A stretch of 64,000 bases of DNA. Source: an uncultured Candidatus Berkelbacteria bacterium. Lineage in GTDB: Bacteria > Patescibacteriota > UBA1384 > UBA12157. The notes beneath the pieces are model-generated. The model was given only the letters and a program-made list of their open reading frames with translations, was not told the origin of the DNA and made no database searches. This document shows, piece after piece, positions 8,673-59,619 of the stretch. Location of the stretch: positions 9,281 to 73,280 of the forward strand of contig CAIRFN010000011.1 of assembly GCA_903877885.1 (NCBI GenBank), given 5' to 3'. The first letter of the stretch is position 1. Each line of letters opens with the position of its first letter. Both the position numbers and the translations under genes were made by a program.

Positions 8673-8690
8673 TTAAATAGTGAGGGAAAA

Positions 8691-9170: not shown

Positions 9171-9203
9171 TGATAAAATTAAACTAATCACAAAGGAAGT
9201 TTT

Positions 9204-10069: not shown

Positions 10070-10129
10070 ATATATCATCTTAATTTTTAATTGGTTTGCT
10101 AAAACCTGCTTTTCTGTTATATTAAAAAC

Positions 10130-21951: not shown

Positions 21952-21953
21952 AA

Positions 21954-44900: not shown

Positions 44901-47900
44901 TTTTGCTTCCGGCGCTGTTCAAACTGTGACTGGTATATTTACGATGACCGGCACTAGCGGTCACAACATTATCTTGTCCCGATCTGGTGGATCTGATCCG
45001 ACTCAATGGCAAATTACGCCAACCGCTTGGAATGTTGATTATGTCACAGTTAGCAACAGTAAAAACAATGCGGCCAGTAAAATCAATCCAGCCCACTTTA
45101 TTGATGGTGGTAATACGACTAACTGGTTCCAAATTGCGCCGAGCGCTGTCACAATTAGTTCAATTACTACCACTGGCTTTACTGTTGGTTGGACTGACAA
45201 TTCGTCTGATGAAACCGGCTTTGGCGTTTATATCGCCGCTGGTACTTCAGATTGTTCAACCGCGACTTATTCCGGTACGCCAGATTATACTGCGGCGGCC
45301 AATGCCGTTAGCCAAGCAGTGACCGGGAAATCGGTTAATACCCAATATTGTGCCAAAGTTCGAGCTTTGAATGCCACTAGTGGTTCAGCACCAGTTTATT
45401 CCTCGCCAATCTATACCTTAGCTAATGTACCTTCGGCGCCGACTTTAGGGACGCCAACAGCTTCATTAATTCCAGTGACGATTAACGCCAATTCTAATCC
45501 AGCTAATACCACTTATGCGATTAAAGTTGTAAATGGTGGCACAAACTATATTCAAACTGATGGTACTTCTGGCGCTTCTGCGGTTTGGCAAGATTTAGCG
45601 ACTTGGGGAACGCCAAAAAATAATACTGGCTTAACCTCTAATACCCAATACACTTATTCTGTGGCGGCGACTAATGGCGACGGTACGGCTACCGATTATT
45701 CCTCAACTGCTCAAGCGACGACTTTAGTGACTTATAATATTACGGCTTCGACTGACGCGAATGGCACGATTTCACCACTTGGTGTTACATCGGTAGCTAG
45801 CGGTGGTACTCAAGCTTATACTTTCTCTGGAAACTCCGGTTATCATATTTCGACATTATTGGTTGATGGTGTTGCTCAATCGACTTTAACTAGTCCGTAT
45901 ACTTTTACTAATGTGACAGCTACTCATACGATTGCGATTACGACTGTGGCTGATAATACTTGTGTTTGGACTGGTTTGGGGTCAGGAACTAATAGCAATT
46001 GGTCCAACACTTTGAACTGGTCTGGTAATGCAGTACCGACTGCGACCTGCGATGTCATTTTCAATGCTACTTCGGCGACGACTTCGATCATTGATTCCGG
46101 TTTTACAAATTCAATTAAATCCTTATCTATAAATTCTGGTTACACTAGTACAGTGTCGGTATTACACGATATTAATATAGGCAACTTTAGCCTAGCAGAT
46201 GGTTATTTCGCACCTGGATCTAACTCTGTTAATGTGATAGAAAACTGGAGTATCACTGGCGGTATCTTTACGAAGGGCAATTCTACGATCAATTTAACAA
46301 ATTGGGTTCAAGACCATACAATTAATACAAACCAAGCATTTTACAATCTTCATATTGGTATTGCTGATCAAACCAAAGTCTCCCTGCTCTCAAATATTAC
46401 CGTTGACCATAACCTATCTATTGAACATGGAACTTTAGATGCTAATGGGTATGATATTGCGATTGGCGATGGCGGTACATTTGCTGATCAAAACGGCTTA
46501 TTTACCGCTGTAACTGGCACAGTTAATTTGGCTGGTTCGGCTACAATTTCAGGGGATACAACATTTAATAATCTTTCGGCTACCACCGGCGGCAAAACTA
46601 TTTCTTTCGCGGCTGGTTCAACTCAAACTGTGACTGGCACTTTGACTTTGACTGGAACTTCTGGTTCAACTTTGACTTTGAATCGATCTGGTAGTTCTGG
46701 CATTTGGTCGATTAATCCAACAGCTTGGAATATTAATTATGTCACCGTTTCTAATTCTACTAATTTAGCCGGTTCACCAATTAATCCGGCGGTTTGGACT
46801 GATAGTAGTGGTAATATTAACTGGTCAACTTCCGCTCCGGCCGGAGTAACGATGACTAGTCTTTCGACTACAGGGTTCACAGTCGGTTGGACTGATAATT
46901 CTTCGAATGAAGATGGTTTTAAGGTTTACATTTCCACTACCCCAAATGCGGATTGTTCTTTGGCTACCTATCCAGGCACGGCCGATTATACTATTGCCGC
47001 CAATACTACAACTAAAGCGGTGACTGGTAAATCAGTTAATACCCAATATTGCGCTAAAGTCACAACCTATAATGGTACTCACGAATCAACACCGGTTTAT
47101 TCATCGCCAACTTATACTTGGGCTAATGTACCTTCGACACCAACTTTGGGCACAGCTGGATCAAGCACGATTCCAGTCACCATCAATCAGAATTCCAATC
47201 CATCAAATACGACTTATGCGATTAAAGTCACTTATAGTTCATCAACTAAATATGTCCAAGCCAATGGAACTTTAGGCGACTCGGCAGTTTGGCAAGATTA
47301 TGCGACTTGGGGTGGTGCCTCTGGGTTTACATCCACCGGTTTAACAGTTAATGTCCAATATACTTATTCGGTGGCGGCCAGAAACGGAGATAATACCGTA
47401 ACAGCCTATAGCACAACTGCTCAAGCTACGACCGTCGGTTCTATTATCTCAGGTACAATTTATACGGCAGCTAATAAATCGACCAATGTTGGTTCTGGTA
47501 AAACTGTTGGTATTACGGTTAATGGTGGTACGAATGTGACAACTGGTACGACTGATGCTAACGGCGCATTTGCCATTCCTATCATTGCTACAACTAATGA
47601 TAAACTTGGAATTTTCCTTTCCGACGCTGTCGGTGAAGCCAATCTTTTCACTTTTGCTATCGACTCAACAACAAATATTTCTGGGTTGGAACTTTACACT
47701 AATACCATTATTTTACGCAGCGAAACTGCTAATCCGATGACAAATGCGGCAATTAAACAAATTAGTACTTGTTCGGTTTGCAGTACTCATATTCACGTGA
47801 CCAATCCAACTGGTAGTAAAATTAACTTTGATGAAGGCTACAGTGTCTTAATCGATGCCAATAAGACCTACACACCTGGCGCGGAAATTGGTACAGTCGG

Positions 47901-50900
47901 TAATTTGTTGGTCAAAGGTACTTTGAATTTGGAAGCTAACTACTTAACTATGACCGGTAACTTTGATTCAACTTCCGGCACAATTAGCCAATCCGGCGCC
48001 ACTGTCACATTCAGCAAAACTTCTGGCACTCAAACTATTACTACAAATAATCAGACTTTAGGAAATGTGGTTTTTGCTAACGGTGGTACTAGACAATTAG
48101 TTGATGGTATGGCCGTGGCTGGAACCTTTACCCAATCGGCTGGTGCATTAGACTTGTCAGCTCATAATCCAAACTGGTCAGTAGCCGGCAATATGGCTTT
48201 GGCTGGCGGCTCGGTCAGTAAGGGGACTGGTGCTTTGACTTTGAATGGCGATTTGTCCTACTTGGCTGCCACTGGTATTAACCCTGGTAATGTGGCCATT
48301 GGCGCTTCACCGGATACTGTCACTTTAAGTTCCGACGCTATTTATGATTCTTTAACGATTAATTCTGGCGATAAATTGGTGACCGCTGGCTACAATATTA
48401 CAGTTAATGGTGATTTGACGATCGATGGCGAACTTGATGCTACCACGGCCAGCAGCCGAAATTCGACTATCACTGTGTTTGGTAATTACGCCAATAATGG
48501 CACACTTGACACTTCGACTTCGACTTTTGATTTTGCTAAAACTTCTGGCACTCAAACTTTGAATACCGGCGGCACTGGTTCAACCAAAGTTTTGAATAAT
48601 CTAGTTCACTCTGGCACCGGCACTTTACAGCCAGTAACTAACCATCTTAAAGTCGATGGTTATATTATTAATGCCAATGGTCCGTTCGATGCTAATAGCT
48701 TGAATATTAATGTCGCTGGCAACTGGTCCAATACTAATACTTTCACGGCCGGCAATGGCACAGTTACCTTTGATGGCGCTGGTGGCACTACTCAAGTTGT
48801 TTCCGGTTCAACCACATTCAATAATTTAACTGCGACGACCAGTTTGGCTCGAACAATTAACTTTGACATTAATTCGACTCAAACCGTGACCGGCACATTG
48901 ACTTTAACTGGTATTAATAGTCATTTGTTAACTCTCGGCCGAAATGGCGGATCTGACAATGACCAATGGAATATTATCCCAACCGCTTGGAACGTTAGCT
49001 ATGTCACAGTCAGCAATTCTTATAACCAGGCTGGTAGCGCTATTAATCCAACTCACTCGGTTAACGGCGGCAATAACCAAATGTGGTTTTCGCCAACTGC
49101 GCCGTCTGGCGTGACCATTGATACAATTCACTCGACCGATGTGATGGTTCATTGGACAATTAATTCACTGGAAGATTTTGGTAGCAAAGTTTGGCTTTCG
49201 ACTCTGGCTAATGACGATTGTTCTTTGGCGACCTATCATGGTTTACCAGATGCGACCACTTCGGCTGGCGTGGCTGCTGAATTATTCGAAGGCTTAACCG
49301 CTAATACCAAATATTGCGCCAAGGTTGTGACTGTATCAGCGCCTAATGGCGACTCCGCGCCATACTTTAGCGCGCCAAAATATACGGCCGCCAATATTCC
49401 AAATGATCCGATTTTGGGTACCGTTACTTCTGGTACAATCCAAGTGAATTTAAATGGTGGTACTTTACCAAAATACGCGATTAAAGTAGTTACTGGCGCG
49501 ACAACTAAATATTTAGCCATCAATGGCACACTTTCTGATACAGCAGTTTTCGACACTTATACTAATTTCGGCGGCGCATCTGGCATAACTAGTACTGGTT
49601 TAGTGGCCAATACTTCCTACACTTATTCTGTCGCTGGTCAAAATGCCGATGGCTTAGCCACTGATTATTCAACCGGCGCAGCCAAATCGACTTTACAAAC
49701 TTATACCATTTCTACTTCGGTTTCTGGCTCCAATGGCACGATTAGTCCAACGCCGACGGCGACCATTGATTCTGGTGCCAGCCAAAATATTACGATTACA
49801 CCATCAAGCGGTTACTATATCGGTCAAATTGTGGTTGATGGCACCTCATTGACTGGTGTTCTAACTTCACCATATTCATTCACTAATATTACTGCCAACC
49901 ATACTATCGCGGTTAGTTTTACCAATACCAATACTTGTGTTTGGGATGGCGGCGGCACTGATTCGAATTGGTCAACGGCCAACAACTGGTCTGGTAACAC
50001 CGTGCCAACTGCTACTTGTAATGTGATTTTCGATGGCACTTCCAGTACACCTTCAACGATTGATGGCGATTTTGCCGGTACTATCGCTTCGATTACAATG
50101 AATTCCGGTTACTCTGATACCTTGACTGTCGATCGAGATCTAACCATTACCGGAACTTTGGTTTTGAGTGCTGGTACATTTGCCGCGGGCGACAATACTA
50201 TCACTTTAACTGGTTCAGGCACACCGTTTGTAATTTCCGGCGGCACATTTGATGCTGGCACTTCAACTTTCAAATATCAATCGGTTGCCAATACAAACGT
50301 GGCTACAACCAGTTATCACAATTTGGAATTTATCGGTCCAGAACAAGCAACACCATCGATTTGGATTAGCAACATGATGTCTGGATTGGGCACTAACGCT
50401 TGTAGTTACAGTAAAATGGCGACTGCTACGGGTAGTGTATCTGGAACTTATCCTGCCAATGCCATCGGACCAAAATCAATTGCCTTTGATCCATTAAATA
50501 ATTTTGTTTGGGCAACCTGTGCAGATTCAGTTTACAAATTAAATGCCACGACCGGTGCTATTATCGGCTCTTTTAACACTGGCTCACCTCAAGGTATTGC
50601 TATCGACGCTTCTGGTAATGTTTGGGTTGATAATAATTTTCCAACTAAGTTTTTTGAACTCAATGGCCAAACAGGTGAAATTATGGCAAGTCATCAATTT
50701 GGTAATGGTAACGATGGTTCGACATCTGCAATGGTAGCTGATTCTACCGGGCATATTTGGATGGCTAGACATATCACTGGCCTATCGGCGGTGATAACTA
50801 AAATAAATGTGTCAGACGCTTCGATTGCTGGCGAATACCAAACTAATATTGATTCAGGTGTTTCTGATATGGCAGTAGATGCTTCTGGTAATATCTGGAT

Positions 50901-53900
50901 TGCTAATGTTGAAAATTCGAGCGTTACAAAGATGAACGGTTCGACCGGTGTGGTGATTGGAACTTACGCGGCTGGTAGTCAACCTTACGGCATTTCAGCC
51001 GACCTAACTGGTCATATCTGGGTTGCAAATTATGTCTCAAGTTTGAAAGAAATAGACAGCTCAAATGGTAGTATTCTTCACGATTATCCAATTCAGTCCT
51101 ATGCAATGGGTTTGTCGCTAGATGCTTCTGGCAATATTTGGGTCGGTGACCAGAACTATGGTGGCGGTACTGGTGTCCAAAAAGTAAGAGCTTCTGACGG
51201 TACGGTTTTAGGAACTTATAGTGCAAGTTACAACTATCGAACATCAGTCTTAGGTGATGCGACTGGCTTTAAATACTTGAATTTTGTCTTGGGTGATGGC
51301 ACGATGCCCAAATACACGCTTGGTGCCGGAACTTTGAATGTGAATAATCTGACAATTGGCGACACTACCACACCATCGTTTGTGACTGCCGCCACTCACA
51401 ACCCAACTATCAATATTTCTGGCGATTTAGATCTTAAAGCCAATGGAACACTAACTGCATCAGGAACTCATACTTTGAGTTTGGCTGGCAACTGGACTAA
51501 TGCCGGTACTTTCAATGCTAACGGTGGCACAGTCAATTTAACAGATAATTCAACTATTTCCGGTAGTTCGACTTTCAATAATCTTTCAGCCACGACTGGC
51601 GGTAAAACCATTTCCTTTGCGGCTGGTTCAACTCAAACTGTTTTAGGAACTTGGACGGCGACTGGCAATAGCGATTCCAATATTACTCTAGCTCGATCTG
51701 GTTCCAGCGGTATTTGGTCAATTAATCCAACCGCCTGGAATGTGGACTATGCCACAGTTTCCAATTCAACAAATCTAGCTTCCAGCCCAATCAATCCACC
51801 GCATTGGACTAATTCCGGTAATAACACTAACTGGTTAACTCCGGCGGCAACGGGCGCTAGTATTACCAACCTAACCTCGACTGGTTTTGATGTGACCTGG
51901 ACCGATAATTCTTCTAGTGAAGATGGTTATAAAGTTTATATTGCCGCCGGCGCATCTGATTGCTCGACCGCGTCATATTCCGGCACTGCCGACTATACTG
52001 TCGCCGCCAATACTACCACTAAATCTGTGACTGGCAAATCCGTCAACAGCCAATATTGCGCCAAAGTGACGACTTATAATGGTTCATATGAATCCACGCC
52101 GGTTTATACTAATTCCGCTTATACTTTAGCTAATGTGCCGAGTGCGCCAACTGCGGCCGCCCAATCATCGACTTCGGTTAAAGTTACGATTAATCAAAAT
52201 TCCAATCCGTCAAATACGACTTACGCGGTTAAAGTAGTTTATGGTGCAACCACGAAATATCTTCACACTGACGGGACATTAAGCGATTCGATTACTTGGG
52301 AAACTTACGCTAACTTTGGTGGCGCCAATGGCATTACCAATACTGGATTAACTACCAATACTCAATATACTTATTCAGTCGCGGCCAAAAACGGCGATGG
52401 TACAGCGACCGATTATTCTTCGACTGCTAATGCCACAACTTCGTCGACTTACGCGATTTCGGCATCTGTCTCTGGTGGTCATGGAACTGTTAGTCCAACT
52501 TCTGCCAATAAAGAAGCCGGCGCCAGCCAAGATATTACTATTACACCAGATTCTGGTTATTATATTGCCAGTATTGCTGACAACGGTTCAAGTCTGACCG
52601 GTACTTTGAGCTCGCCATATTCTTTGACTAATATTTCCGCCGCTCACACCATTGTCGTGACTTTTGTCGCCAACGGTACTTGTATTTGGGACGGCGGCGG
52701 TTCAGATAATAACTGGACAACGGCCAATAACTGGACCGGTAATGCCGCGCCAGATGCTAATTGCGATGTTATTTTCAATGCGACTTCAACCAAGGATTCG
52801 ACGATTAATACCACAACTCACTTCAAGTCAGTTTCCTTTAATTCCGGATATAGCGGTACAATAACTGATAGTTCAACTTTCAATGTTGATGGTAACTTGA
52901 ATTTGGCTAGCGGTACATTTAACGCTGGGAGCCAAGCTATTAATATTGGTGGTAACTGGAACAATACCGGCGCTACTTTTAATCCAGGTAGTTCGACTGT
53001 AACTTTCACTTCGACCAGCTCTGGTAACACCATTAAATCTTCCAATCAACATTTCAATAATTTTGTTCTTTGGGGCAATGGCGGCGACTGGACCGCTCAA
53101 GACAATATCAGTGTCGATGGTAACTGGTCAAGATTTGACGGTACCTTTATTCCAAGTGACTACACGGTTAATTTAACCGGCGCGACTGGATCGACTCAAA
53201 TTTTAACCAACGATACTACTTTCAATAATCTGACGGCCACAGCGACTGGCGCTCGCACGATTCAATTTGCTGGTGGCTATACTCAAATCGTTTTGGGGAC
53301 TTGGACGGTGACTGGCTCGGATAGTGGCAATATTACTTTGGAATTAAAATCCGGCGATGGCGATTACTGGCGAATCACTCCAACTGCTTGGAATGTTAAT
53401 TATGTGACTGTTTCTAACTCGATTAACAATGCTTCCAGTCCAATTAATCCGGCGGTTTGGACTAATGGTGGTGGCAACACCAACTGGGCAATTGGTCAGC
53501 CAACCGGTGTGACTTTAGCTACACCAACCACCACTGGTTTTACTGCTAACTGGTCCGAATCAATTCAAAACGGTAACGGTTACAAAGTTTATGTTTCGAC
53601 AACTGCTAACTCTGATTGTTCGGCGGCAACTTATCCAGGCACAGCTAGCTATACGATCAATTCAGCTTCAACTTTAACAAAAGACGTGACTGGCAAATCA
53701 GTCAATACTCAATATTGTGTCGCAGTCAAAGAAACCAGCGCGACAGGGGATTCAGCTTTGGCTTACTCGAATCCACTTTATACTTTGGCTAACACGCCGG
53801 GTCAGCCAACTGTGAATGTGCTTGGTTCAAATTCGATTAATGTTAAAATTGATCAGAATTCCAATTCGGCTAATACGACTTACGCTATTAAAGTGGTGAA

Positions 53901-56900
53901 CGGTTCGACGACTAAATATTTGCAAACCGATGGTACGCTTAGTAATTCGGCCGAGTGGGCCAGTTATGCTGATTTTGGTGGCGCTGATGGTTTAACCAAT
54001 ACTGGTTTGACAATCAATAATTTATACACTTATTCCATCGCGGCCAAAAATGGCGATGGGGAAGCGACTGATTATAGCACGACTGCCGATGGTTCAACTC
54101 TATCAACTCACACTATTACGGCTTCGGTTTCCGGTGGTCATGGTACAATCTCGCCAGCTGGTGTTACCGCTTTGGATAATGACGCTAACCAAGATTACAC
54201 CATTACACCGGCCGATGGTTACTATATTGCTCAAATTATTGTTGATGGCATCTCGATTTCCGGCACTTTGAGCTCACCATATTCATTTACCAATGTCGAA
54301 GGCGATCACACAATTGTCGCCACCTTTGCCGCTAACGGCACTTGTGTTTGGGACGGCGGCGCGGCAGGGGATGCTCGTTGGTCATCGGCTGATAACTGGA
54401 CTGGAAACGTCGCTCCAAGCACTAGTTGTGATGCAATTTTCAATGCCACTTCGACCAAAAATTCTTCGTTAGATTCCAGTTTTGAACCGGGTCATGTTAA
54501 TTCCTTATCGATTAACACTGGCTATACTGGTACTTTGACTTTGGATGATGTCCTAAACGATGATACTAATTTGACTATTGCTTCCGGTACAATTGATGCT
54601 ACCAATCAAGTAATTAATCTTGGCGGCAACTGGACGAAAACTGGCGGTACTTTCACTGCTGGTGGTGGCACAATTAATTTAATCGCTGGTGAGGGTACAA
54701 CTCAAATTATTTCCGGCTCAACTACTTTCCGTAATTTGACCGCAACTACTTCAGTCGCCAGAACAATTAGTTTTGCGGCTGGTTCAACTCAAACGGTCAC
54801 TGGTAATTTGACTTTAACCGGCACAACCGATGTGGCTTTGACTTTGGCTCGAAATGGTTCAAGTGGTGTTTGGTCAATCAATCCAACCGCCTGGGATATT
54901 GATTACGTGACGGTTAGTAACTCCACTAACCTGGCTTCCGCCCAAATTAATCCGCCACATTGGACTAACGTTAGCAATAACACTAATTGGGAAACGAGTT
55001 ATTCTGCGCCAACTGTCACGACTAATAATCCTGTCACCTCTGATCAAACTAAGACCACCGCAACTATCAGTGGTAATATCACAGCAACAGGTAATAAATC
55101 GATGACCGCTTGCGGTTTAGAGTATGGTACTGATGAAGCAAATCCGACGAATGCGGCACCGTCTACCGATTGTAATGCAACCACACCAACATCAATTATT
55201 GCCAATTTAACTAATTTAACTGCCGATACCACTTACTATGTTCGCGCTTATGCTGCCAACTCTATCGGCACTAATTACGGCGAATGGGTAAGTTTTGCAA
55301 CTTTACCAAATACTTACACAATCACTGCTTCTGCTGGCGCTCATGGCACAATCAGTCCATCCGGCGAAGTTTCAGCAAACAATGCTTCAAACAAAACATT
55401 TATCATTACTCCAGCTACAAATTATCATATCAGTAGTATTTTGTTTGACGATGAATCGCAAACGATTACCACCGCGACTGGCATGGACTTTGCAGTCAAT
55501 AATATTACGACTAATCACACTTTATCGGTCAGTTTTGCCATTAACACCAACACGGTTACGGCTTCGGCTGGCGCTAACGGTACAATTTCGCCACTGGGCG
55601 CTACAGCTGTTAATTATGGCGCCACTCAAGCTTACACTATCACACCAAACACTAATTTTCATATTGCTTCGGTTTTGGTTGATGGTCAGTCGGTCGGTGT
55701 GGTCACATCTTACACCTTTACTAATGTGATAACTTCCCACACTATTTCCGCTACCTTTACGGTTGATACTCACAATATTGTTGCTTCAGCAGGTTCGCAT
55801 GGCGCTATTAGTCCAACCGGTACAACTGCGGTTAATTATGGCGGCGATCAAGCTTATACCATTTTGCCAAGCGATAATTATCATATTGCCGATGTCTTGG
55901 TTGACTCTGTTTCTGTTGGCGCGGTCAGTGATTACGCTTTCTCGAATGTCGTAACTTCCCATACCATCTCCGCGACTTTCGTTGCCAATCCAGGCTTTGA
56001 ACACACTATTACTGCTACCATTTCTGGTCATGGCACGATTAGTCCAGCCGGTTCGGTTTTGGTTAGTGACAGCAATAGTCAAGTCTTTACTATCAATCCA
56101 TCAACCGGTTATTCTATCGACAGTATTTTGGTTGATAATGTAGCGGTCACTCCGGCTACAACTTATACTTTCTCTAATGTGACAACTGATCACACGATTG
56201 CAGTTACAATTGCTACAACTACTTACACAATTACCGCTTCGGCTGGTACTGGCGGTTCGATTAGTCCATCTGGCGCCGTTGTTGTTGATTATGATTCTGA
56301 CAAAACCTTTACCATCACACCAAAAACCGGTTATCATATTGACAATGTTAAAGTTAATAATAAATCTCAAGGCGCTATTTCGACTTACACCTTTAGTTCG
56401 ATTACCGATGATCAGGAAATTGAAGCGACTTTCGCTCTTGATCCAACTTCGATTGTTAACCCAACCAATTTAACTGGTATCGCTGGCGATTCGCAAAATT
56501 CACTTTCCTGGACCAATCCAATTACAACTTACTTTGATCATGTTGATTTATATCGATCAACTACGGCCGGCACACTTGGTGACAAATTAGCTGGAAACCA
56601 AACTGGCACAACATATATAGATCGAAACTTAACCAACAATACGACTTATTACTACACTTTGAAGGCAATTGATACTTACAATAATGTTTCGACTGGCACC
56701 GAACAATTGGCTTTGATGCCAAGCAGTATTGCAGATATCATTGCACCAAACGCGCCAACCAATTTGCGCGCCACCAACATCAAATCGACGACTATTAGTT
56801 TGGTTTGGGATGCTTCGACTGACAATGTTGCGGTTGTTGGCTATAAACTCTTTAATGCCGACACCAATATTCAAATTGCCACCACCAGCCAAACTGATTA

Positions 56901-58350
56901 CGATTTGACTAAATTGACACCACAAACCACTTACAATTTCTTTGTTGTCGCTTACGACGGCGCTGGTAATATTTCTGATAAATCTAATACTTTGCAAGCG
57001 ACCACCTTAACTGGCCTGACTACTGCCACTCAAGCCTATCTGGTGATTGATAATGTGCCAAACCAAGTTGATGCCAACACCGGTTTCAAAGATGGCTTAA
57101 AGGTTTCGGCCACCGATGCTGGTGGCGCGGCCATGGCCACTTACACTGGTAGTGTTTACTTTACTTCAACCGATGCTAAAGCGGAACTTGCTTGGACGCA
57201 AGATCACCAATATACCTTTACCACCACTGACGCTGGTAGCCACACTTTTGCTGGTTCTGATTTCAAATTCAAAACCGCTGGCGATCAAAAACTAACCGTG
57301 ACTGATGGTCAAATCCGCGGCAGTGTTTCGATTAAGGTTCTGGGCACTAGCACTACTGATACGATTCAAAAAGCCCAAGATTCAATTAATAGTTTGTTTG
57401 CCAATATTAATACTCAAGGCTTTAGTCCAGCGGCAACCAATGTCAGCAACGCCGTGATTGTGACTGCCACCGCCGCTTTGGCTGCGCCACTCGTTTTGAA
57501 TGCCACTTTGAGCGTGATTAATATCTGGCCACAATTAATTTATCTCTTGTCGCATTTGTTGCAATTCCTCGGTATTCGCAAACGTCGCAAACCGTGGGGC
57601 ACAGTCTTTAACTCCCAAACCGGTCAACCAATTCCTTATGCGATTGTGAAAATCTTTGATAAAGAATATAACCGTTTATTGGAAACTGCGGTGACAGATA
57701 GTGCCGGCCGCTTTGGCTTCCTAGTTAAAACTGGCAATTACTATGTCACGGTTCAAAAATCTGGCTACATTTTCCCATCAACTTTGAAAGTTAGCAATTT
57801 CTTTGATGAAGTTTACACTGGCGGTAGTTTGAAAATTGATAGTCATGACAAAACCATCACCTTGAATGTACCAATGGATCCAGAAGTCAAAATGAGCTTC
57901 AGCTACAAACTCTTAGTCTTCACCATCAAAGTTAACCGATTCCTCAATACTTTGCGCGTCATTATTTTGACCTTAGGAATTCTCTTTGCTATTGTCTTAC
58001 TCATTATGTCCTTTAATCTTTTCTACCTTTTCTCCTTGGCTTTCTACATTTTGATTGCTATCTTGGAATTCATTCGCTCGCGCCGCTCGCGCCCATATGG
58101 TGTGGTCACCGATACTTACGGCCGACCACTGGAAACTGCTATTGTCCGTATTTACGAAAAGCGTACCAACCGTTTGATTGAAACTGATGTAACCGATTTG
58201 GATGGCCGCTTCAAGTTCTTGGTTAATCCTGGCGTTTACTATATTACCGCCACCAAACCGTCATACACTGATTTCAAATCTCACATTATGTATTTGGAAA
58301 AAGAAAAGACAATGGTGTCAGTGAACATCAAAATGAAGAAGATGGAGTAA
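29935..58350 (+). CDS. Giant surface protein (9471 aa). N-terminal TM anchor, S/T/P linker, FN3/Ig-like, LamG x2, IPT/TIG, NHL beta-propellers, beta-helix-like repeat modules, duplicated Gly-rich module, InlB-B-like repeat array, two C-terminal CarbopepD_reg-like domains around TM helices
   Basis: Single uninterrupted 28,416-nt ORF. TM helix at about aa 63-86 (VHWSLLTGYTVAAVVLMVTLVA). LamG signatures (FTFDFWFKSN...HHVALVRNGSNWQIYVDG...GYMDEIRISKG; MWFKDNGS...WNFVAFTRTSGGSATISLNGG...FKGQIDEVRQYN). NHL blades (NQLYYPRGVTFDSAGNIWIADYYNQRLKKY ... FQNPEGVAVDSAGYIYVSDSTNNRIQKLD). TIG (PTLSSISPNNAAVGTKITIIGTNFGG). C-terminal GTVFNSQTGQPIPYAIVKIFDKEYNRLLETAVTDSAGRFGF and GVVTDTYGRPLETAIVRIYEKRTNRLIETDVTDLDGRFKF, flanking the helices LRVIILTLGILFAIVLLIMSF and LFYLFSLAFYILIAILEFI. 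Confidence 0.9.
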   Translation: MAQGEGSIYPAPTHKRVNELDEKLIQLQKSTRASIPAMVWFHDTLRQKFRWYYAWHMNAWSNAVHWSLLTGYTVAAVVLMVTLVAKGPAHQIFAASKQSWATADDWKNWKLENLAVTADGIRLAQRSVQGISTQRIAQVVESATPIISAPAIPEISATPSASEIASPTVSATASQSASPSATPTATESTLATPTPSTLPTESTTFATTGTATISFDPHDQEIVDWLGSEISDELNGGQIKVEFSTDNILWTEDAKTLANSNSAYLRLTLSTTDITTSPVLKTFAVDFSRLPKTPTDLKVSAETSFLTSGQVLSAGTFTDPDNDIHQASEWQVTNQSGEYTTTLVDSGIDTKNLTTYTVSRKLTDGNYYFRVRYQDSTGAWSPWSAECGFIVAGKSVSVVGDKQIPKDKNEIVTKRTETTKTIDNKNGTKTLESFSGIIHYKTDYTDPKAQWLDINPDHYVDFPDFVLYDQMPSTVKVYKDKIGYEIQSRKTGEKYTVELQNVDGTPAVSTTTGANGLVSWADINNSKAKIEAQNKLIGQFINPVLAQDSTDSSIIDNGNLKFEFQISENGVRLWKTIDGAAAPKNFQWKITKSGSGNDLKFRDNPDAYQIDANGLAQTDQKVTIDAKVIAGDKNSTFTWQETALTSDLKIDTDVTFNPDASPENTSADSYMYQTGPSDWFGMTYNYGSGYDNTAASGHFAGWSSSNNQYDNVYRSIFTFDTSSIPSSVTVNSATFSVYGTGKSDDNSWAPSLNVYSSNPSYPNSLYYYDYYSFGSTAFATPIAYANYNTSGYNDFALNSTGISAVSLGGITKLGLRTTADAESSDPGVVSGSTANAYFDGYFSEQGDGYRPKLAVTYVDAGTCRWTGLGTDTNWSTPENWSDNTVPSSVCNVIFDSTSSKNSNIDTSFVGSTKSIKLDTGYAGELTASTNLTNNGDFILNAGTFTPGSQTINVGGSWTNGGGTFNKGTSTINLTGTNPNTTIQTNSQQFYNLNVAGQIANDSYTKLLIHADGANNSNSFTDESGHAVTANGDAKISTTTSKFGGSSAYFDGSGDSLSIPASSDFNIDSDFTFDFWFKSNSTTRYTSFFSNEGSGGGWTLLMNNANAYAGDIAFYGNGGTPVPLVTSTGGYNDGNFHHVALVRNGSNWQIYVDGTSRASVTNGNNNTAGTTAYIGNNHTFANRDFAGYMDEIRISKGIARWTGNFSVPTITYFSSKYTLSSDVTVSNNTAISGGTLTLGSYNLSTNNLSQTGGILTNTSGAISVAGDFNHTSGTTTNTGTINFTSNNSQAVHSGGANLGNVNFSGNGTWTLDDDASFKDVSLTGGILDSNGRTIHVSGNWAKDLGNFTSTGSIVDLNGATGSTQIISGDTTFHNLTSTTTGTNTRTLEFADGSTQTIDGTVTFTGTVTNYLTLRSVSNTADFHINPRLHSVNYVNVTHSYNDNSGQIIDPIYYISGGNNTNWFSAPTLSSISPNNAAVGTKITIIGTNFGGVQGASTVTIGGTSATVASWSATAVVVTVPSVSTGSQNVVVTTAGGASGSVSLSVIGGTTKNWDTNSELSGLSLSSLGLNTANNTVSVGTTGSSYSYSSTIGTTAGSATNQLYYPRGVTFDSAGNIWIADYYNQRLKKYNSAGVYQSSITGIYATQVAFDSSGNIYASSYSNGLIYKYNSSGTYLSAIGSGYLSSPTGLVIDSANHIFVADYGASQVLEFNTSGTLLATIATNGSTNGKVSYPAGLGLDASGNLYVADGSNNRIEKFDNSGNFMAVFGGYGSGDGQFQNPEGVAVDSAGYIYVSDSTNNRIQKLDSAGNYVSKFGSYGTGNSQFEYPYGVTLDSANNLWVADCNNHKIKVFAPSSVAYAESGSAVASSYDSGSYGTVWNKLSWAYTYLPSGAAITGKIRVADTTAGLTTATWSNSVSNGGAPQISSASPIGRYAQIEYDITSNTAHTDTPIIDSFAVNYTLHAEPVITAIAPTSAAPGTKITLGGFNFSTGDTVKYGTTDVSSSAQFGTNLVTATLPSNATTGQAWSITNSHGTGYSSAYTVTSQKDVTWDTQSDLEGNSNVTYSGTQVQDHETVKIGGGDGFQWSATTNINATNSNIYMNYPLAYTADDSGNIYANVYNGSSYVIQKFAPDGTPVTNWSASSYGLAFDHASGKVFSLNYSGVDKYTTGGSYDSSISFSGAPTGINYPSSFLVDASGNIYVDDYYYDYDSHFYVDKFNSSGVWQARFAYSSGSYEFSSYSYYINGFGVDASGNLSLLASGKVYQYAPTGGMSITNWTPSYNLGSISVTSTGDVIGLDTSNYAIRDYSSTGTLKSSITSFNGGDTFNFNYGEVTQPFISAAGTMFVFDFRNDYSNHFVTFVNPTSGTVTITTNGQSGDATATKTWKTASWAYTAMPTSAVVSARVRTAADNAGAPDTWGDWSSTVSTNGGNIQTSGDFPTGAWAQIEYTLAASSADNSPIVDAFNVSYNLESSGPVAPTVTTSAAGDITSISANLNGDITNTGGENATEAGFDYAVDSSTGHDCTSLGTTAQAKNTSSYGTGVYQITTGSNLTIGTYYCARAYATNSAGTGHGSYVSFKTLGPQISGTYDGASGTVKVAVNGVLDASSVAVSSDWTLNLTTTPTTDQAIVIFVDSPATGENAVTVTKYDGADIANLTLTKGAVTIGQTDPTSQTVVNNTDIGTYTSANDSDVITAISSTDLTVTGNLIISAGDIKYALDGNTTVSGNWTNAGTFDGGQSTVYLTGDAHISGNTTFNNLSATTGDKTISFVGASTQTITGTLTLKGTNNHNLILTGFGSGTQLWSINPTAWDIDYVTVSYSTNQASSPINPSHWTNSGNNTNWVTAAPSGVTLDTPTTTGFTAHWTESIQNGTGYKIYVTYTISNNDCSQATYPGTPTYTINSSATLSKLVTGRNLDTQYCVMVKETSATGDSAPAYSNLLYTLANTPNTPTVSTQSSSAIKVTIDANTNRPTTTYAIKVVNGATTKYLAVNGTLSDTIVWDTFANFGSTSGLNSTGLAPNTTYTYSVAAKNGDNVTTDYSTSAQATTLTTHTITTSVTGANGTISPTPTVTVDHGTSQDITITPSSGYYVGSIIVDSTTHILTDLTTPNPYIYTFSNITADHTIAVTFVANNTKVWDGESDSNWSTAANWTGNTVPTATDAVIFDSTATTASTIDSSFAGTIAALNLNSGYTNTLSATSGLTVTGDVTLAAGTFSPGSQTISVGGNWDSSGGTLTPGSSTIDLTGTGTLKTKNVSSPPYDFYNLKCAHNTKTTTLQNGVRISNFVYLYSGGIVGGNSLYLYKSDGDPVVNTGATINGAILYRPSADITVAGQVTAGDIYYGSVTNNATITLSSNVATIGDIHINSQNTGKLVTLNCGSNSISAVNLYLGVGSPGEYDGKINFGSSASHVISGNIARIAGADSTGNAIDFNTATVAVGGSINFTGITVTPGTSTVNMTATSGTKNITSAGQSFNNFTMNGIGGTFAPLDDLRVAGNFTRTNGTFTPGSNTVYLTGAAGSTQVISGSTTFNNLSATGTSARTITFTAGTTQTVSGTWTATGANGQNLILQSSSTSAWNINPTAWNVNYVTVSYSTNQAASPINPAHWTNSGNNTNWTTDASCIWNGGGADNNWSTAANWNGGNVPTSTCAVVFNSSSVTNSVIDAGFAGTIASLSLNTGYAYTLSATAGLTITGDITLVAGTFAPGSQTINVGGSWTNTGATFTKGTSTINFNGSGYPTITTNNQDFYNVTVAGQGGAESNLAHNWKLDENTGTSTSDSVGSLNGTLTGSVSWISPGKYSNAVSMNGSGQYVHFGNISNTSTETYTMWFKDNGSYQTSSGYIGSTLISQGQTGCQGLGIYIATGNKVRAYDWNGGAHDIITTDTFNVGAWNFVAFTRTSGGSATISLNGGTPVTQSGWSNNFSYCGANFNINRIVNDNNSTFKGQIDEVRQYNTILSPTAISNLYNYNNSVGVGAYSLSSALTATNNLTMTSGSLSAGSNNLTVGNYIQNNGTFSAPASSNSMNVSGNFTNSGGTFTHNSGTVSLTGASSSTQTIAGSTTFNNLTATATAARTISFTNGTTQTVSGTLTLTGGTDSGQAKNITLSRSGASGVWSINPTAWNIDYVTVSNSTNLASSPIAPAHWTDVSGNTNWAPAAPAVTTATTVGTNIFTTTATVNGTITSKNGATITACGFFVGTTQGNAVEKDSTNCDLAVPNAITYNLTGLTANTTYSVRAFTTNSGGTGYGSWQTFATISNTRTWDGGGADNNWSTAANWNGDVALEAGNDVVFNATSTKASYIDASFAGTINSLSVNTGYTNTISAYRSLTATGDITLNAGTLAHADNSIAQTYYLDITAANITINSGGKIDVTGLGFDGGSSGSGGYGNGGGTVSGTYGGGGGFGGNGGNTSAGGGGGAANGSITNPASLGSGGASTTGCSGQAGGSGGGYVKLTVSNTLNLNSGYVYADGNISGTNCAGAGSGGTINISAGTIAGNGAIKAFGGASQGNYGGGGSGGRVAIAYTTSSYSGTISTYGGAGSGSGGVAGGAGTQYTKDNGQSYGNLTINNASTTVGAITTISTALGMPATLNSLIISGATNITQSDNLTVNTDGTFTITTYIQNGTLTANSLTTLTVNSAFYQNAALSMTGLTTVTLAGTLQLTNNTNLGTGASITINSGGNLTHADNSTAQTNYIDISAANITVNSGGKMDVSGLGFDGGGAGLSGYGNGTGTVSGTYGGGGGNGGNGGNTSAGGGGGGANDSITNPASLGSGGAGISACGNRTGGSGGGYVKLTVSGTLNLNSGYIYADGNDAGGNCAGAGSGGTINISAGTVTGNGAIKAFGGAGGGGGNYGGGGGGGRVAITYTTSTYSGTISTYGGAGGNNGGVAGGAGTQYKKDNALSYGDLTIDNSPTAAGAKTPLLATTTSINTLTNQNNANLDLNGKTLEVAKNFTNTATFTSNSGTVSFIDATQTSIISGTNSFYNLSSTINDKAIAFASGAVQTVTGIFTMTGTSGHNIILSRSGGSDPTQWQITPTAWNVDYVTVSNSKNNAASKINPAHFIDGGNTTNWFQIAPSAVTISSITTTGFTVGWTDNSSDETGFGVYIAAGTSDCSTATYSGTPDYTAAANAVSQAVTGKSVNTQYCAKVRALNATSGSAPVYSSPIYTLANVPSAPTLGTPTASLIPVTINANSNPANTTYAIKVVNGGTNYIQTDGTSGASAVWQDLATWGTPKNNTGLTSNTQYTYSVAATNGDGTATDYSSTAQATTLVTYNITASTDANGTISPLGVTSVASGGTQAYTFSGNSGYHISTLLVDGVAQSTLTSPYTFTNVTATHTIAITTVADNTCVWTGLGSGTNSNWSNTLNWSGNAVPTATCDVIFNATSATTSIIDSGFTNSIKSLSINSGYTSTVSVLHDINIGNFSLADGYFAPGSNSVNVIENWSITGGIFTKGNSTINLTNWVQDHTINTNQAFYNLHIGIADQTKVSLLSNITVDHNLSIEHGTLDANGYDIAIGDGGTFADQNGLFTAVTGTVNLAGSATISGDTTFNNLSATTGGKTISFAAGSTQTVTGTLTLTGTSGSTLTLNRSGSSGIWSINPTAWNINYVTVSNSTNLAGSPINPAVWTDSSGNINWSTSAPAGVTMTSLSTTGFTVGWTDNSSNEDGFKVYISTTPNADCSLATYPGTADYTIAANTTTKAVTGKSVNTQYCAKVTTYNGTHESTPVYSSPTYTWANVPSTPTLGTAGSSTIPVTINQNSNPSNTTYAIKVTYSSSTKYVQANGTLGDSAVWQDYATWGGASGFTSTGLTVNVQYTYSVAARNGDNTVTAYSTTAQATTVGSIISGTIYTAANKSTNVGSGKTVGITVNGGTNVTTGTTDANGAFAIPIIATTNDKLGIFLSDAVGEANLFTFAIDSTTNISGLELYTNTIILRSETANPMTNAAIKQISTCSVCSTHIHVTNPTGSKINFDEGYSVLIDANKTYTPGAEIGTVGNLLVKGTLNLEANYLTMTGNFDSTSGTISQSGATVTFSKTSGTQTITTNNQTLGNVVFANGGTRQLVDGMAVAGTFTQSAGALDLSAHNPNWSVAGNMALAGGSVSKGTGALTLNGDLSYLAATGINPGNVAIGASPDTVTLSSDAIYDSLTINSGDKLVTAGYNITVNGDLTIDGELDATTASSRNSTITVFGNYANNGTLDTSTSTFDFAKTSGTQTLNTGGTGSTKVLNNLVHSGTGTLQPVTNHLKVDGYIINANGPFDANSLNINVAGNWSNTNTFTAGNGTVTFDGAGGTTQVVSGSTTFNNLTATTSLARTINFDINSTQTVTGTLTLTGINSHLLTLGRNGGSDNDQWNIIPTAWNVSYVTVSNSYNQAGSAINPTHSVNGGNNQMWFSPTAPSGVTIDTIHSTDVMVHWTINSLEDFGSKVWLSTLANDDCSLATYHGLPDATTSAGVAAELFEGLTANTKYCAKVVTVSAPNGDSAPYFSAPKYTAANIPNDPILGTVTSGTIQVNLNGGTLPKYAIKVVTGATTKYLAINGTLSDTAVFDTYTNFGGASGITSTGLVANTSYTYSVAGQNADGLATDYSTGAAKSTLQTYTISTSVSGSNGTISPTPTATIDSGASQNITITPSSGYYIGQIVVDGTSLTGVLTSPYSFTNITANHTIAVSFTNTNTCVWDGGGTDSNWSTANNWSGNTVPTATCNVIFDGTSSTPSTIDGDFAGTIASITMNSGYSDTLTVDRDLTITGTLVLSAGTFAAGDNTITLTGSGTPFVISGGTFDAGTSTFKYQSVANTNVATTSYHNLEFIGPEQATPSIWISNMMSGLGTNACSYSKMATATGSVSGTYPANAIGPKSIAFDPLNNFVWATCADSVYKLNATTGAIIGSFNTGSPQGIAIDASGNVWVDNNFPTKFFELNGQTGEIMASHQFGNGNDGSTSAMVADSTGHIWMARHITGLSAVITKINVSDASIAGEYQTNIDSGVSDMAVDASGNIWIANVENSSVTKMNGSTGVVIGTYAAGSQPYGISADLTGHIWVANYVSSLKEIDSSNGSILHDYPIQSYAMGLSLDASGNIWVGDQNYGGGTGVQKVRASDGTVLGTYSASYNYRTSVLGDATGFKYLNFVLGDGTMPKYTLGAGTLNVNNLTIGDTTTPSFVTAATHNPTINISGDLDLKANGTLTASGTHTLSLAGNWTNAGTFNANGGTVNLTDNSTISGSSTFNNLSATTGGKTISFAAGSTQTVLGTWTATGNSDSNITLARSGSSGIWSINPTAWNVDYATVSNSTNLASSPINPPHWTNSGNNTNWLTPAATGASITNLTSTGFDVTWTDNSSSEDGYKVYIAAGASDCSTASYSGTADYTVAANTTTKSVTGKSVNSQYCAKVTTYNGSYESTPVYTNSAYTLANVPSAPTAAAQSSTSVKVTINQNSNPSNTTYAVKVVYGATTKYLHTDGTLSDSITWETYANFGGANGITNTGLTTNTQYTYSVAAKNGDGTATDYSSTANATTSSTYAISASVSGGHGTVSPTSANKEAGASQDITITPDSGYYIASIADNGSSLTGTLSSPYSLTNISAAHTIVVTFVANGTCIWDGGGSDNNWTTANNWTGNAAPDANCDVIFNATSTKDSTINTTTHFKSVSFNSGYSGTITDSSTFNVDGNLNLASGTFNAGSQAINIGGNWNNTGATFNPGSSTVTFTSTSSGNTIKSSNQHFNNFVLWGNGGDWTAQDNISVDGNWSRFDGTFIPSDYTVNLTGATGSTQILTNDTTFNNLTATATGARTIQFAGGYTQIVLGTWTVTGSDSGNITLELKSGDGDYWRITPTAWNVNYVTVSNSINNASSPINPAVWTNGGGNTNWAIGQPTGVTLATPTTTGFTANWSESIQNGNGYKVYVSTTANSDCSAATYPGTASYTINSASTLTKDVTGKSVNTQYCVAVKETSATGDSALAYSNPLYTLANTPGQPTVNVLGSNSINVKIDQNSNSANTTYAIKVVNGSTTKYLQTDGTLSNSAEWASYADFGGADGLTNTGLTINNLYTYSIAAKNGDGEATDYSTTADGSTLSTHTITASVSGGHGTISPAGVTALDNDANQDYTITPADGYYIAQIIVDGISISGTLSSPYSFTNVEGDHTIVATFAANGTCVWDGGAAGDARWSSADNWTGNVAPSTSCDAIFNATSTKNSSLDSSFEPGHVNSLSINTGYTGTLTLDDVLNDDTNLTIASGTIDATNQVINLGGNWTKTGGTFTAGGGTINLIAGEGTTQIISGSTTFRNLTATTSVARTISFAAGSTQTVTGNLTLTGTTDVALTLARNGSSGVWSINPTAWDIDYVTVSNSTNLASAQINPPHWTNVSNNTNWETSYSAPTVTTNNPVTSDQTKTTATISGNITATGNKSMTACGLEYGTDEANPTNAAPSTDCNATTPTSIIANLTNLTADTTYYVRAYAANSIGTNYGEWVSFATLPNTYTITASAGAHGTISPSGEVSANNASNKTFIITPATNYHISSILFDDESQTITTATGMDFAVNNITTNHTLSVSFAINTNTVTASAGANGTISPLGATAVNYGATQAYTITPNTNFHIASVLVDGQSVGVVTSYTFTNVITSHTISATFTVDTHNIVASAGSHGAISPTGTTAVNYGGDQAYTILPSDNYHIADVLVDSVSVGAVSDYAFSNVVTSHTISATFVANPGFEHTITATISGHGTISPAGSVLVSDSNSQVFTINPSTGYSIDSILVDNVAVTPATTYTFSNVTTDHTIAVTIATTTYTITASAGTGGSISPSGAVVVDYDSDKTFTITPKTGYHIDNVKVNNKSQGAISTYTFSSITDDQEIEATFALDPTSIVNPTNLTGIAGDSQNSLSWTNPITTYFDHVDLYRSTTAGTLGDKLAGNQTGTTYIDRNLTNNTTYYYTLKAIDTYNNVSTGTEQLALMPSSIADIIAPNAPTNLRATNIKSTTISLVWDASTDNVAVVGYKLFNADTNIQIATTSQTDYDLTKLTPQTTYNFFVVAYDGAGNISDKSNTLQATTLTGLTTATQAYLVIDNVPNQVDANTGFKDGLKVSATDAGGAAMATYTGSVYFTSTDAKAELAWTQDHQYTFTTTDAGSHTFAGSDFKFKTAGDQKLTVTDGQIRGSVSIKVLGTSTTDTIQKAQDSINSLFANINTQGFSPAATNVSNAVIVTATAALAAPLVLNATLSVINIWPQLIYLLSHLLQFLGIRKRRKPWGTVFNSQTGQPIPYAIVKIFDKEYNRLLETAVTDSAGRFGFLVKTGNYYVTVQKSGYIFPSTLKVSNFFDEVYTGGSLKIDSHDKTITLNVPMDPEVKMSFSYKLLVFTIKVNRFLNTLRVIILTLGILFAIVLLIMSFNLFYLFSLAFYILIAILEFIRSRRSRPYGVVTDTYGRPLETAIVRIYEKRTNRLIETDVTDLDGRFKFLVNPGVYYITATKPSYTDFKSHIMYLEKEKTMVSVNIKMKKME
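42932..44645 (+). repeat. Tandem duplication (two units of about 1 kb, about 0.7 kb each well conserved) inside the giant gene, encoding a glycine-rich module
   Basis: Unit 1 about 42932-43620 and unit 2 about 43951-44645 encode near-identical segments (LAHADNSIAQTYYLDITAANITINSGGKIDVTGLGFDGG...GGSGGGYVKLTVSNTLNLNSGYVYADGN...AGSGGTINISAGTIAGNGAIKAFGG versus LTHADNSTAQTNYIDISAANITVNSGGKMDVSGLGFDGG...GGSGGGYVKLTVSGTLNLNSGYIYADGN...). Confidence 0.7.
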
Positions 58351-58563: not shown

Positions 58564-59619
58564 TCACTTGTGGACCCAAACCGGAGTGCCAATTGAATCC
58601 CAATCATAAATCCATTTAGCATCGTCATTGGAAGCGTTCAAGCAACCGTGGCTCATCGGATGACCAAAATTATGATGCCAATAAGTGCCGTGAATCGAGT
58701 AATCACCATGCCACCAGCTAACCCATTGAACACCTTTCAAATCATAGCTGTCACCCTTCATTTCGGCGACACTATTTTTACCATAAACATAGTAAACTCC
58801 AAGGATAGTTGGATGTTTGGCAATGCCCGAAGAAATCAAAAATTGTTTAACCAATTTTTCGTTTTCGTAAGCGTATAAGGTTTGCTCTGACAAATTTACT
58901 TCAATTCTTTTACCATAAAAATATTGGCCTGGGACAAATGTTTTACTAACTTTTTGGGTGCCTCGAGGTATAATAATAGCTAAAATGGCGATTGTGCCGC
59001 CAACTTTGCCTTTATCAAATTGATTTTTCAAATCTGTTAGTAATTTATCTTTATCTAAAGTTTGGCCGTCTTTACCTTCATCAACAACCGTGCCATCTTC
59101 TTCTAAAACCTTTCGATCAACCTTATCGACGTTGACAATTGGAATAATCGAATCGACAAATTTAGTCATTTTAGTTTCATCAATTTTAGTCGTAAGCAAA
59201 ACATTGTGCCCGACAATAGCTAAATGAATATTTTCATCAATTTTAGTGAAAAAGTTGCCTTGACGACCATAATTATAGGCTTCGTCTAGGGTTTTTTGTT
59301 CGTCAAAAGTAATGCCTAAATCCGAAAGTTTTGGCTTAAATTTAGTTTCTTTGTAAACTAATTGCGGTCCGGTTTTATTAACATTACTAATATAATCGTC
59401 AACAATGATTTTGGCTTCCGCTTTGGTTTTGCCGCCAACCCGAATGCCAGAGATAGTGGTATTTGGCAGAATTTTTTGGTCGTAAAATTTACTAATATCA
59501 AAAATGCCAACCGCTACCACACCAAGAAAGAGAACTAATATAAAAAGTTTTAAAGCAAAGTGACGCGCTTCTTTATGATGTTTTCGAATATAATGAATTT
59601 TTACTTCAGATGATTCCAT
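58564..59619 (-). CDS. L,D-transpeptidase (YkuD domain), membrane-anchored
   Basis: N-terminal TM (FALKLFILVLFLGVVAVGIF). C-terminal catalytic signature SIHGTYWHHNFGHPMSHGCLNASNDD (His...SHGC). Confidence 0.75.
   Translation of the reverse strand: MESSEVKIHYIRKHHKEARHFALKLFILVLFLGVVAVGIFDISKFYDQKILPNTTISGIRVGGKTKAEAKIIVDDYISNVNKTGPQLVYKETKFKPKLSDLGITFDEQKTLDEAYNYGRQGNFFTKIDENIHLAIVGHNVLLTTKIDETKMTKFVDSIIPIVNVDKVDRKVLEEDGTVVDEGKDGQTLDKDKLLTDLKNQFDKGKVGGTIAILAIIIPRGTQKVSKTFVPGQYFYGKRIEVNLSEQTLYAYENEKLVKQFLISSGIAKHPTILGVYYVYGKNSVAEMKGDSYDLKGVQWVSWWHGDYSIHGTYWHHNFGHPMSHGCLNASNDDAKWIYDWDSIGTPVWVHK

Follow-up and report, generated by a model that had tools for sequence, protein, structure and literature searches.

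The window analysed here, a 64,000-nucleotide (nt) stretch of a contig from an uncultured Candidatus Berkelbacteria bacterium (CAIRFN010000011.1), contains an open reading frame (ORF) on the forward strand (29935..58350) that translates into a giant protein of 9,471 amino acids (aa). At the C-terminus of this protein, encoded by the 3' end of the ORF, lies a cassette of membrane helices and two small beta-sandwich domains, D1 and D2, that is a real, widespread polytopic membrane anchor with conserved transthyretin-like domains, which are probably located in the cytoplasm. The peptides of this region quoted in an earlier note on the same DNA were all recovered in frame at the end of the ORF. 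Moreover, the anchor that it had described, of transmembrane (TM) helices and two carboxypeptidase-regulatory/transthyretin-like domains, is borne out by matches to the Pfam family PF13620, by structure comparison and by hydropathy. Features lie on the forward (+) strand unless stated otherwise.

A Kyte-Doolittle scan of the complete 9,471-aa protein, averaged over 19 residues, showed only three regions above the threshold of 1.6: aa 63-87 (peak 2.05), aa 9170-9198, and aa 9335-9382 (peak 3.02), with nothing above 1.6 in the approximately 9,080 residues between the first and the second. Since these are the only hydrophobic regions of so long a protein, the helices cannot be regarded as chance patches. 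The cassette begins with TMa, an alanine/threonine-rich, weakly hydrophobic segment AVIVTATAALAAPLVLNATLSVI (aa 9173-9195; 57451..57519; Kyte-Doolittle 1.9), which is a candidate stop-transfer span; in 179 family members the segment has no charges and an abundance of small residues. These 179 near-complete cassettes, each found in one stretch among 252 collected sequences, also underlie the charge statistics given below. Next comes TMb, an amphipathic helix NIWPQLIYLLSHLLQFLGI (aa 9196-9214; 57520..57576; Kyte-Doolittle 1.07), which in the AlphaFold2 model runs on from TMa with a predicted local distance difference test score (pLDDT) of 83-90. TMb is the amphipathic segment that the earlier note had recognized; the more hydrophobic TMa directly before it, beginning 29 nt upstream of the start given at the time, had been missed. 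The helix is followed by a first basic cluster, RKRRK (aa 9215-9219; 57577..57591), whose equivalents in family columns 78-82 are lysine or arginine (K/R) in 62-100% of cases. D1 (aa 9220-9316; 57592..57882; pLDDT >90) comprises a carboxypeptidase-regulatory/transthyretin-like beta-sandwich and a family-specific C-terminal extension of ~35 aa that ends in NVPMDP (N-(I/V)-P-M-D-P in the family). Positions invariant in the family include W-G, P, T-D..G-R-F-G-F and P-x-D-P. A charged amphipathic helix (aa 9317-9339; 57883..57951; K9319, K9325, K9332 and R9335), with a family mean of 6.3 K/R versus 2.3 acidic residues, leads into TMc LRVIILTLGILFAIVLLIMSF (aa 9340-9360; 57952..58014; Kyte-Doolittle 3.02; pLDDT >93). 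After a one-residue turn, N9361 (58015-58017), the chain continues with TMd LFYLFSLAFYILIAILEFI (aa 9362-9380; 58018-58074), a second basic cluster, RSRRSR (aa 9381-9386; 58075..58092), D2 (aa 9387-9471; 58093-58347) and the stop codon of the giant ORF (58348-58350).

The two beta-sandwiches belong to a known domain family. A Pfam scan matched PF13620 (CarboxypepD_reg) over two stretches of the last 449 aa (78.6 bits, E 4.7e-22, cut-off 32.3), and the separately scored pieces gave 32.3 bits for D1 and 35.7 bits for D2. D1 also matched PF13715, and all Pfam hits at the C-terminus were to beta-sandwich families. D1 and D2 are thus bona fide members of PF13620, with a score above the gathering cut-off and a seven-strand transthyretin-like beta-sandwich fold; the AlphaFold2 model of the cassette has a mean pLDDT of 91.6. 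The strands of the model, together with the family alignment, place the domain sizes at ~97 aa for D1 and 85 aa for D2; of the earlier proposal of two small sandwich domains the identity therefore stands, and the size of ~65 aa does not.

A BLASTP comparison of the cassette with itself revealed an internal duplication, in which TMb-RKRRK-D1 aligns with TMd-RSRRSR-D2 at 49% identity over 77 residues (E 3e-21). It begins within the helices, where TMb pairs with the end of TMd, continues across the basic cluster and includes the P-(W/Y)-G at the entrance to the sandwich. The repeat unit consequently consists of a helix, a basic patch and a sandwich, and its duplication implies that D1 and D2 are oriented alike relative to their preceding helices.

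The earlier note had suggested looking for the same cassette on other proteins, and such proteins proved to be abundant. A single-sequence search returned 13 relatives, mostly short fragments on short contigs, one of them from Candidatus Woykebacteria. A profile built from these 13 recognized 761 proteins among 8,000 candidates scored, and against 1.84 billion cluster representatives it matched 13,611 at E<=1e-3 and 2,772 at E<=1e-30. The strong matches (E<=1e-30) lie almost always at the extreme C-terminus of Patescibacteria proteins that bear a signal peptide and measure from 300 to more than 6,000 aa. Among the 150 matches listed, 17 were unrelated multi-repeat CarboxypepD_reg proteins and the remainder matched the whole cassette. 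The giant protein itself scored 513.5 bits over profile positions 28-334, with the match ending at its final residue, and the profile detected no second copy of the cassette within the window. The 179 members with a near-complete cassette range from 295 to 9,471 aa (median 664), the distance from the end of the cassette to the C-terminus has a median of 2 residues, and 149 of the 161 members that start with methionine carry an N-terminal hydrophobic leader. The ectodomains upstream of the cassette are hypervariable (FN3, Big_1, Fn3_assoc/CHB_HEX_C, Calx-beta, bacterial Ig and others), in contrast to the strongly conserved D1 and D2.

With one exception, all source names belong to the Candidate Phyla Radiation (CPR)/Patescibacteria: Woykebacteria, Berkelbacteria, Pace(i)bacteria, Nomurabacteria, Moraniibacteriota and metagenome-assembled genomes (MAGs) labelled Saccharibacteria. 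The exception, an 8.2-kb contig labelled Thermoguttaceae (JBEKFZ010000146.1, locus L004), is taken up by a giant gene with the cassette. In match statistics and in the 60-residue C-terminal tail it is identical to a Patescibacteria locus from the same study (L005), and it is probably mis-binned, not an occurrence outside CPR. Among the genome loci, which were found with an alignment of the close subfamily, the closest hit is Candidatus Berkelbacteria ELA735, with 78% identity over the cassette. At loci L002-L007 the cassette ends open frames of 2,436 to >2,970 aa, all of which except L007 exceed the 8-kb flank.

Several further observations concern individual family members. At L001 (MHCQ01000018.1, Candidatus Woykebacteria, 1-11077), the homologue is annotated as a 358-aa hypothetical protein downstream of ~9.7 kb of uncalled sequence that contains 384 N, and it probably represents the last part of a giant gene that assembly gaps have interrupted. 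Similarly, many of the 200-360 aa proteins described as 'transthyretin-like' in databases are pieces of cassette proteins cut off at contig ends (L015, L016). Two short members (P0069 and P0033) were considered as variants without an ectodomain that could settle the topology and rejected, because they start <=350 nt from a contig end and are thus fragments. At two Paceibacteria-type loci, a cassette protein of ~640 aa lies just upstream of the ribosomal S12-S7(-EF-G) operon (L014, 8001-12065; L015, 350-2574), possibly as a conserved core gene among housekeeping neighbours. A 2,492-aa protein without the cassette neighbours the Candidatus Nomurabacteria locus L012 (CP064958.1, 1-4063), which shows that some large CPR surface proteins do not use this anchor. 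Some members (P0228, P0235, P0241, P0246, P0052 and P0078) extend beyond D2 by disordered tails of 40-195 aa, either acidic or rich in Pro/Thr/Ala, whose last residues form a short conserved peptide, (N/S)IFG, KFG or PDYSE. The peptide is similar to linear docking motifs, and, speculatively, the tails recall those that bind partners.

No model of Pfam or NCBIfam, searched with the C-terminus and with the TMa/TMb stretch, covered the helices or the cassette as a unit, and solved structures resembled it at the level of single domains only. The literature searched, including that on CPR and on giant proteins, held no description of the cassette, which is not proof of novelty. The cassette as a unit is thus undescribed in domain libraries and in the searched literature, even though its two sandwiches belong to an established family.

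The number of membrane passes between D1 and D2 determines whether the two domains share a compartment. AlphaFold2 resolves the 48-residue hydrophobic block at aa 9335-9382 into two helices with a 3-residue break and a pLDDT >90; the break, at model positions 176-178, separates a helix spanning positions 139-175, which includes the charged segment before TMc, from a second one at 179-200. The turn between TMc and TMd is short and conserved in the family (consensus P-K-P-Y-N). With two passes in between, D1 and D2 come to lie on the same membrane side, and the helix count, the charge bias, the cysteine statistics and the duplication agree that they share a compartment. The earlier note had instead drawn the giant ectodomain as tethered at both ends, with one sandwich on each side of the membrane. 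Membrane helices do separate D1 from D2, yet the opposite placement is contradicted by that note's own count of two helices, and both domains follow equivalent basic clusters of a duplicated module.

The second half of that model, the tether at the N-terminus, drew on an N-terminal signal-anchor helix. A hydrophobic helix is indeed present, at aa 63-87. It is part of a leader of ~95 aa (29935-30216), which recurs in at least nine other giants with the cassette as well as in L007, and which starts with a hydrophilic n-region (aa 1-62; 29935..30120) containing LDEKLIQLQKSTRASIPAMVWFHDTLRQKFRWYYAWH and alignable with the N-termini of the nine giants. The n-region consensus is SLDxEIxxLQKSTRTTxPAxLPLHDxLR....WYYxW, with variants LQKSTR(T/A)(T/S)xPA..(L/F)HDxLR....WYYxW. 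The hydrophobic helix (Kyte-Doolittle 2.05) and a c-region, PAHQIFA (aa 88-94), occupy 30121..30216, and a Pro-x4-5-(A/V/T/I)-x-A|A pattern lies 7-10 residues past the helix in 10/10 aligned leaders. In the giant protein this pattern corresponds to I-F-A|A at residues 92-95, where signal peptidase I is predicted to cut between A94 and A95. Together with the conserved AxA|A site, the hydrophobic helix fits the N-terminal export signal of the cassette family, and the leader is probably cleaved there; if so, the mature protein would be tethered by the C-terminal cassette alone. An anchor at both ends with D1 and D2 on opposite faces is accordingly a highly implausible arrangement. The leader matched no Pfam or NCBIfam model, and a word-based search for leader homologues returned no candidates; the leader family is based on 10 sequences, all recovered through the cassette. 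Its features suggest a new extended signal peptide used for the very large surface proteins of CPR.

The distribution of charges indicates which side D1 and D2 occupy. K/R average 4.2 over the six residues that follow TMb, 6.3 in the helix leading into TMc and 3.4 behind TMd, as opposed to 0.47 in the turn between TMc and TMd and 0.13 in TMa with its turn. In the giant protein, ~14 K/R lie on the D1/D2 side and none on the opposite side. According to the positive-inside rule, basic flanks mark the cytoplasmic side of a membrane helix, and the K/R-rich side of D1 and D2 is therefore predicted to be cytoplasmic. The cysteines point to the same side. Ectodomains of the family contain 1.75 cysteines per 100 aa, in even numbers in 85% of the cysteine-bearing proteins (44 in the giant protein), a pattern typical of exported domains with disulfide bonds. 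The stretch that starts with D1 has only 0.31 per 100 aa, with exactly one cysteine in 91/162 proteins, none in 50/162 and none in the giant protein. Moreover, aa 9172-9211, covering TMa and TMb, form a single continuous 40-residue helix without a hairpin in the AlphaFold2 model, so that the chain would make a single net crossing from the ectodomain to D1. The duplication is consistent with this topology: TMb-basic-D1 is homologous to TMd-basic-D2, and TMd would run from outside to inside if the TMc/TMd turn faces outward, which supports cytoplasmic D1 and D2. Taken together, a cytoplasmic location of both domains is likely.

In the alternative topology that keeps both domains outside, TMa/TMb and TMc/TMd would be two hairpins dipping in from the outer face with cytoplasmic turns, and D1 and D2, extracellular and adjacent to the ectodomain, could serve, for example, in peptidoglycan binding or as the base of a stalk. 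The duplication can be read in this sense too, since TMa-turn-TMb could by homology be a hairpin like TMc-turn-TMd, and most family members carry a helix-breaking N-P-x-S-F-S-E between TMa and TMb. The genes for cell-wall enzymes that flank the giant gene in this genome, a YkuD L,D-transpeptidase and a polysaccharide deacetylase, would also suit it. Against this stand the continuous TMa/TMb helix predicted for the giant protein, the rare and usually single cysteines of the cassette compared with the even-numbered ones of the ectodomains, and a gross violation of the positive-inside rule, with ~14-16 K/R per protein outside and almost none inside. Moving two folded domains past strong basic clusters would, in addition, be mechanistically unfavourable. 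An extracellular position of D1 and D2 is thus unlikely.

Several points nevertheless weigh against a cytoplasmic D1 and D2. D1 and D2 would be outside if both TMa and TMb span the membrane, or if neither does, and neither segment is convincing as a lone TM helix: crude sums on the Hessa 2005 scale are +2.8 for TMa and +7.1 for TMb (family medians +2.7 and +4.5), versus -4.9 for TMc and -1.3 for TMd. TMa has a pLDDT of only 40-58 within the TMa/TMb helix, and the predicted template modelling scores (pTM) of the AlphaFold models are 0.42-0.54. In characterized proteins, carboxypeptidase-regulatory/transthyretin-like domains are mostly extracytoplasmic, and the list of structural hits is consistent with this. 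The cysteine argument assumes that exported cysteines are oxidized in these organisms. The only architecture with a D1-type domain beside a cytoplasmic-type domain, a PAS domain in P0013, provides a weak hint at most, as all PAS matches were below thresholds. No partner or function was found for D1 and D2, and gene neighbourhoods in the wider family are not conserved. Finally, an acidic residue in TMb column 59 and Arg/Lys in column 66 (i, i+7) occur together in 130 of the 179 proteins, with neither in 40 and a mixture in 9, a count uncorrected for phylogeny. This co-occurrence, although confounded by phylogeny and a weak point, suggests an intrahelical pair in a low-dielectric environment. 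The columns correspond to aa 9196 and 9203 in the giant protein, which has Asn and Tyr there; its Berkelbacteria-type subfamily has N/S/T and Y.

A different function for the same segments would be that of a processing or sorting signal, in which TMa, the helix breaker, the following helix and the basic cluster form a cleavage site for a rhomboid-type or other intramembrane protease, so that the ectodomain is released or transferred and a D1-TMc-TMd-D2 stub is left in the membrane. The order of motif, hydrophobic helix and basic cluster resembles that of the LPXTG, PEP-CTERM and GlyGly-CTERM signals, TMa is rich in G/A/S/T with a conserved N-P in most members, and its low AlphaFold2 confidence would fit as well. 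However, N-P-x-S-F-S-E is absent from the giant protein and from its Berkelbacteria/Woykebacteria-type relatives, no protease gene is a conserved neighbour, and the ~250 well-conserved residues after the basic cluster are unlike any known sorting signal. Searches for such signals were also negative, in agreement with the earlier note, which had set the anchor apart from LPXTG, autotransporter and type IX secretion system (T9SS) anchors. LP.TG does not occur in the 9,471 aa, nor does LP.[TSA][GAN] in the last 500 aa. Models for the T9SS C-terminal domain, PEP-CTERM and GlyGly-CTERM were unmatched, the sole NCBIfam hit in the last 449 aa being a partial match to CHU_0125_OmpA (32 bits versus a cut-off of 620). 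Autotransporter models of Pfam gave no hits, and the C-terminus is modelled as alpha-helices and two small sandwiches, with no barrel. Patescibacteria are regarded as single-membrane bacteria, and the closest relatives of the giant protein come from MAGs labelled Berkelbacteria or Woykebacteria. A role of the cassette in processing is therefore improbable.

Outside the cassette, Pfam recognizes a small share of the ectodomain, namely NHL repeats, laminin G and a few FN3 domains (aa 1116-1194, 1647-1858, 2945-3039 and 8940-9021), and most of the ectodomain has no Pfam-A match at E<=0.001. With these modules the giant protein is like an adhesin at the cell surface. The earlier note had the membrane segment come after the last FN3 domains. 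The final FN3 detected by Pfam does end near aa 9021, although an additional Ig-like beta-sandwich intervenes as the last ectodomain module (aa 9034-9137; 57034..57345), modelled by AlphaFold2 in strands between positions 13 and 114 (pLDDT 89-96) and without a Pfam hit. A juxtamembrane helix TDTIQKAQDSINSLFANINT (aa 9141-9160; 57355..57414) is predicted with low confidence at model positions 119-138 (pLDDT ~53-71), and its equivalent in other family members is K/T-rich.

Directly after the giant gene, in convergent orientation, lies the gene for the YkuD L,D-transpeptidase, which contains a PG_binding_4 domain (58564-59619, reverse strand). The transpeptidase gene and the next three or four genes are syntenic in the Berkelbacteria/Woykebacteria-type loci (L001-L003, L005-L007). 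It was considered as a conserved partner gene of the cassette and rejected, because the synteny is confined to this clade. Three wider-family loci that were compared shared no neighbour gene. Upstream of the giant gene, an N6/N4 DNA methylase with a helix-turn-helix domain, a ResIII/SNF2-type helicase and a large serine recombinase are encoded in a row (19984-25831), which looks like a restriction-modification or mobile island.

Taking these results together, we favour, with moderate confidence, a model in which the last ~300 residues form a conserved, lineage-specific C-terminal membrane-anchor cassette with cytoplasmic D1 and D2. In the proposed insertion pathway, Sec would export the giant ectodomain behind the extended, probably cleavable leader until translocation halts in the weakly hydrophobic TMa/TMb region (aa 9173-9214), with RKRRK as the retention signal. 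Either the TMa or the TMb half would span the bilayer, giving one net crossing, and D1 would remain in the cytoplasm. The strongly hydrophobic TMc-N-TMd hairpin would then insert with its one-residue turn on the outer face, so that RSRRSR and D2 also stay inside. The mature protein would thus be held by about three helices and by two folded transthyretin-like 'stoppers' on the inner face, an arrangement that should resist pull-out far better than a single helix and on which a conserved partner inside the cell might also dock or cluster the protein. The CPR/Patescibacteria, most of them uncultured, form a very large group of tiny bacteria that are thought to live attached to hosts, with surface proteins as their presumed attachment tools, and an extraction-resistant anchor makes sense for a 9,000-aa adhesin-like protein in such organisms. 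The conservation of D1 and D2 next to hypervariable ectodomains leaves room for an intracellular partner in clustering, positioning or signalling, and a cytoplasmic location of the two domains, if true, would point to a partner that links surface adhesins to the cell interior. More broadly, the cassette could be a Patescibacteria-wide sorting and anchoring system whose cytoplasmic domains dock surface proteins, ranging from proteins of 500 aa to adhesins of 9,000 aa, to a conserved intracellular partner for host-contact positioning, clustering or signalling, with the extended leader as the matching export signal; this is a tentative extension that we consider possible but doubtful. In practice, the cassette may serve as a marker for the anchored surface proteome of any CPR genome, as LPXTG does for Gram-positives, and would also catch fragmentary giant genes annotated as small 'transthyretin-like' or hypothetical proteins.

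Individual parts of this architecture have counterparts in known systems. The leader is similar to ESPR of autotransporters and YSIRK-G/S of Gram-positive surface proteins, which likewise place a conserved N-terminal extension before an ordinary hydrophobic core and AxA site on very large proteins, but its motif (LQKSTRTTxPAxLPLHDxLR..WYYxW) differs from theirs and corresponds to no Pfam or NCBIfam model. SlaB, the stalk of the Sulfolobus surface layer (PDB 8qox_B), shows a likeness to single domains only (Foldseek TM-score 0.22 over the whole cassette) and no sequence relationship; its sandwiches are extracellular, and it has one TM helix. The carboxypeptidase regulatory-like domains of PF13620 and PF13715, such as the transthyretin-like domain of human carboxypeptidase D (PDB 5aq0), are soluble, mostly extracytoplasmic accessory domains. 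In contrast, those of the cassette are each fused to a membrane helix and a basic cluster, are duplicated and probably cytoplasmic, and include an extended D1. The LPXTG/sortase, PEP-CTERM/exosortase and GlyGly-CTERM/rhombosortase systems also employ a modular C-terminal element with a helix and a basic cluster on unrelated surface proteins of a lineage, whereas the cassette has neither a signature motif nor a linked dedicated transpeptidase, and ~250 structured residues follow its first basic cluster. Type I stop-transfer anchors share with the cassette the order of signal peptide, exported ectodomain, hydrophobic segment and a basic cluster that retains the C-terminus inside. Unlike these anchors, which consist of a single helix and a short tail, the cassette combines about three helices with two folded, conserved domains in ~300 aa and recurs as one unit in thousands of proteins.

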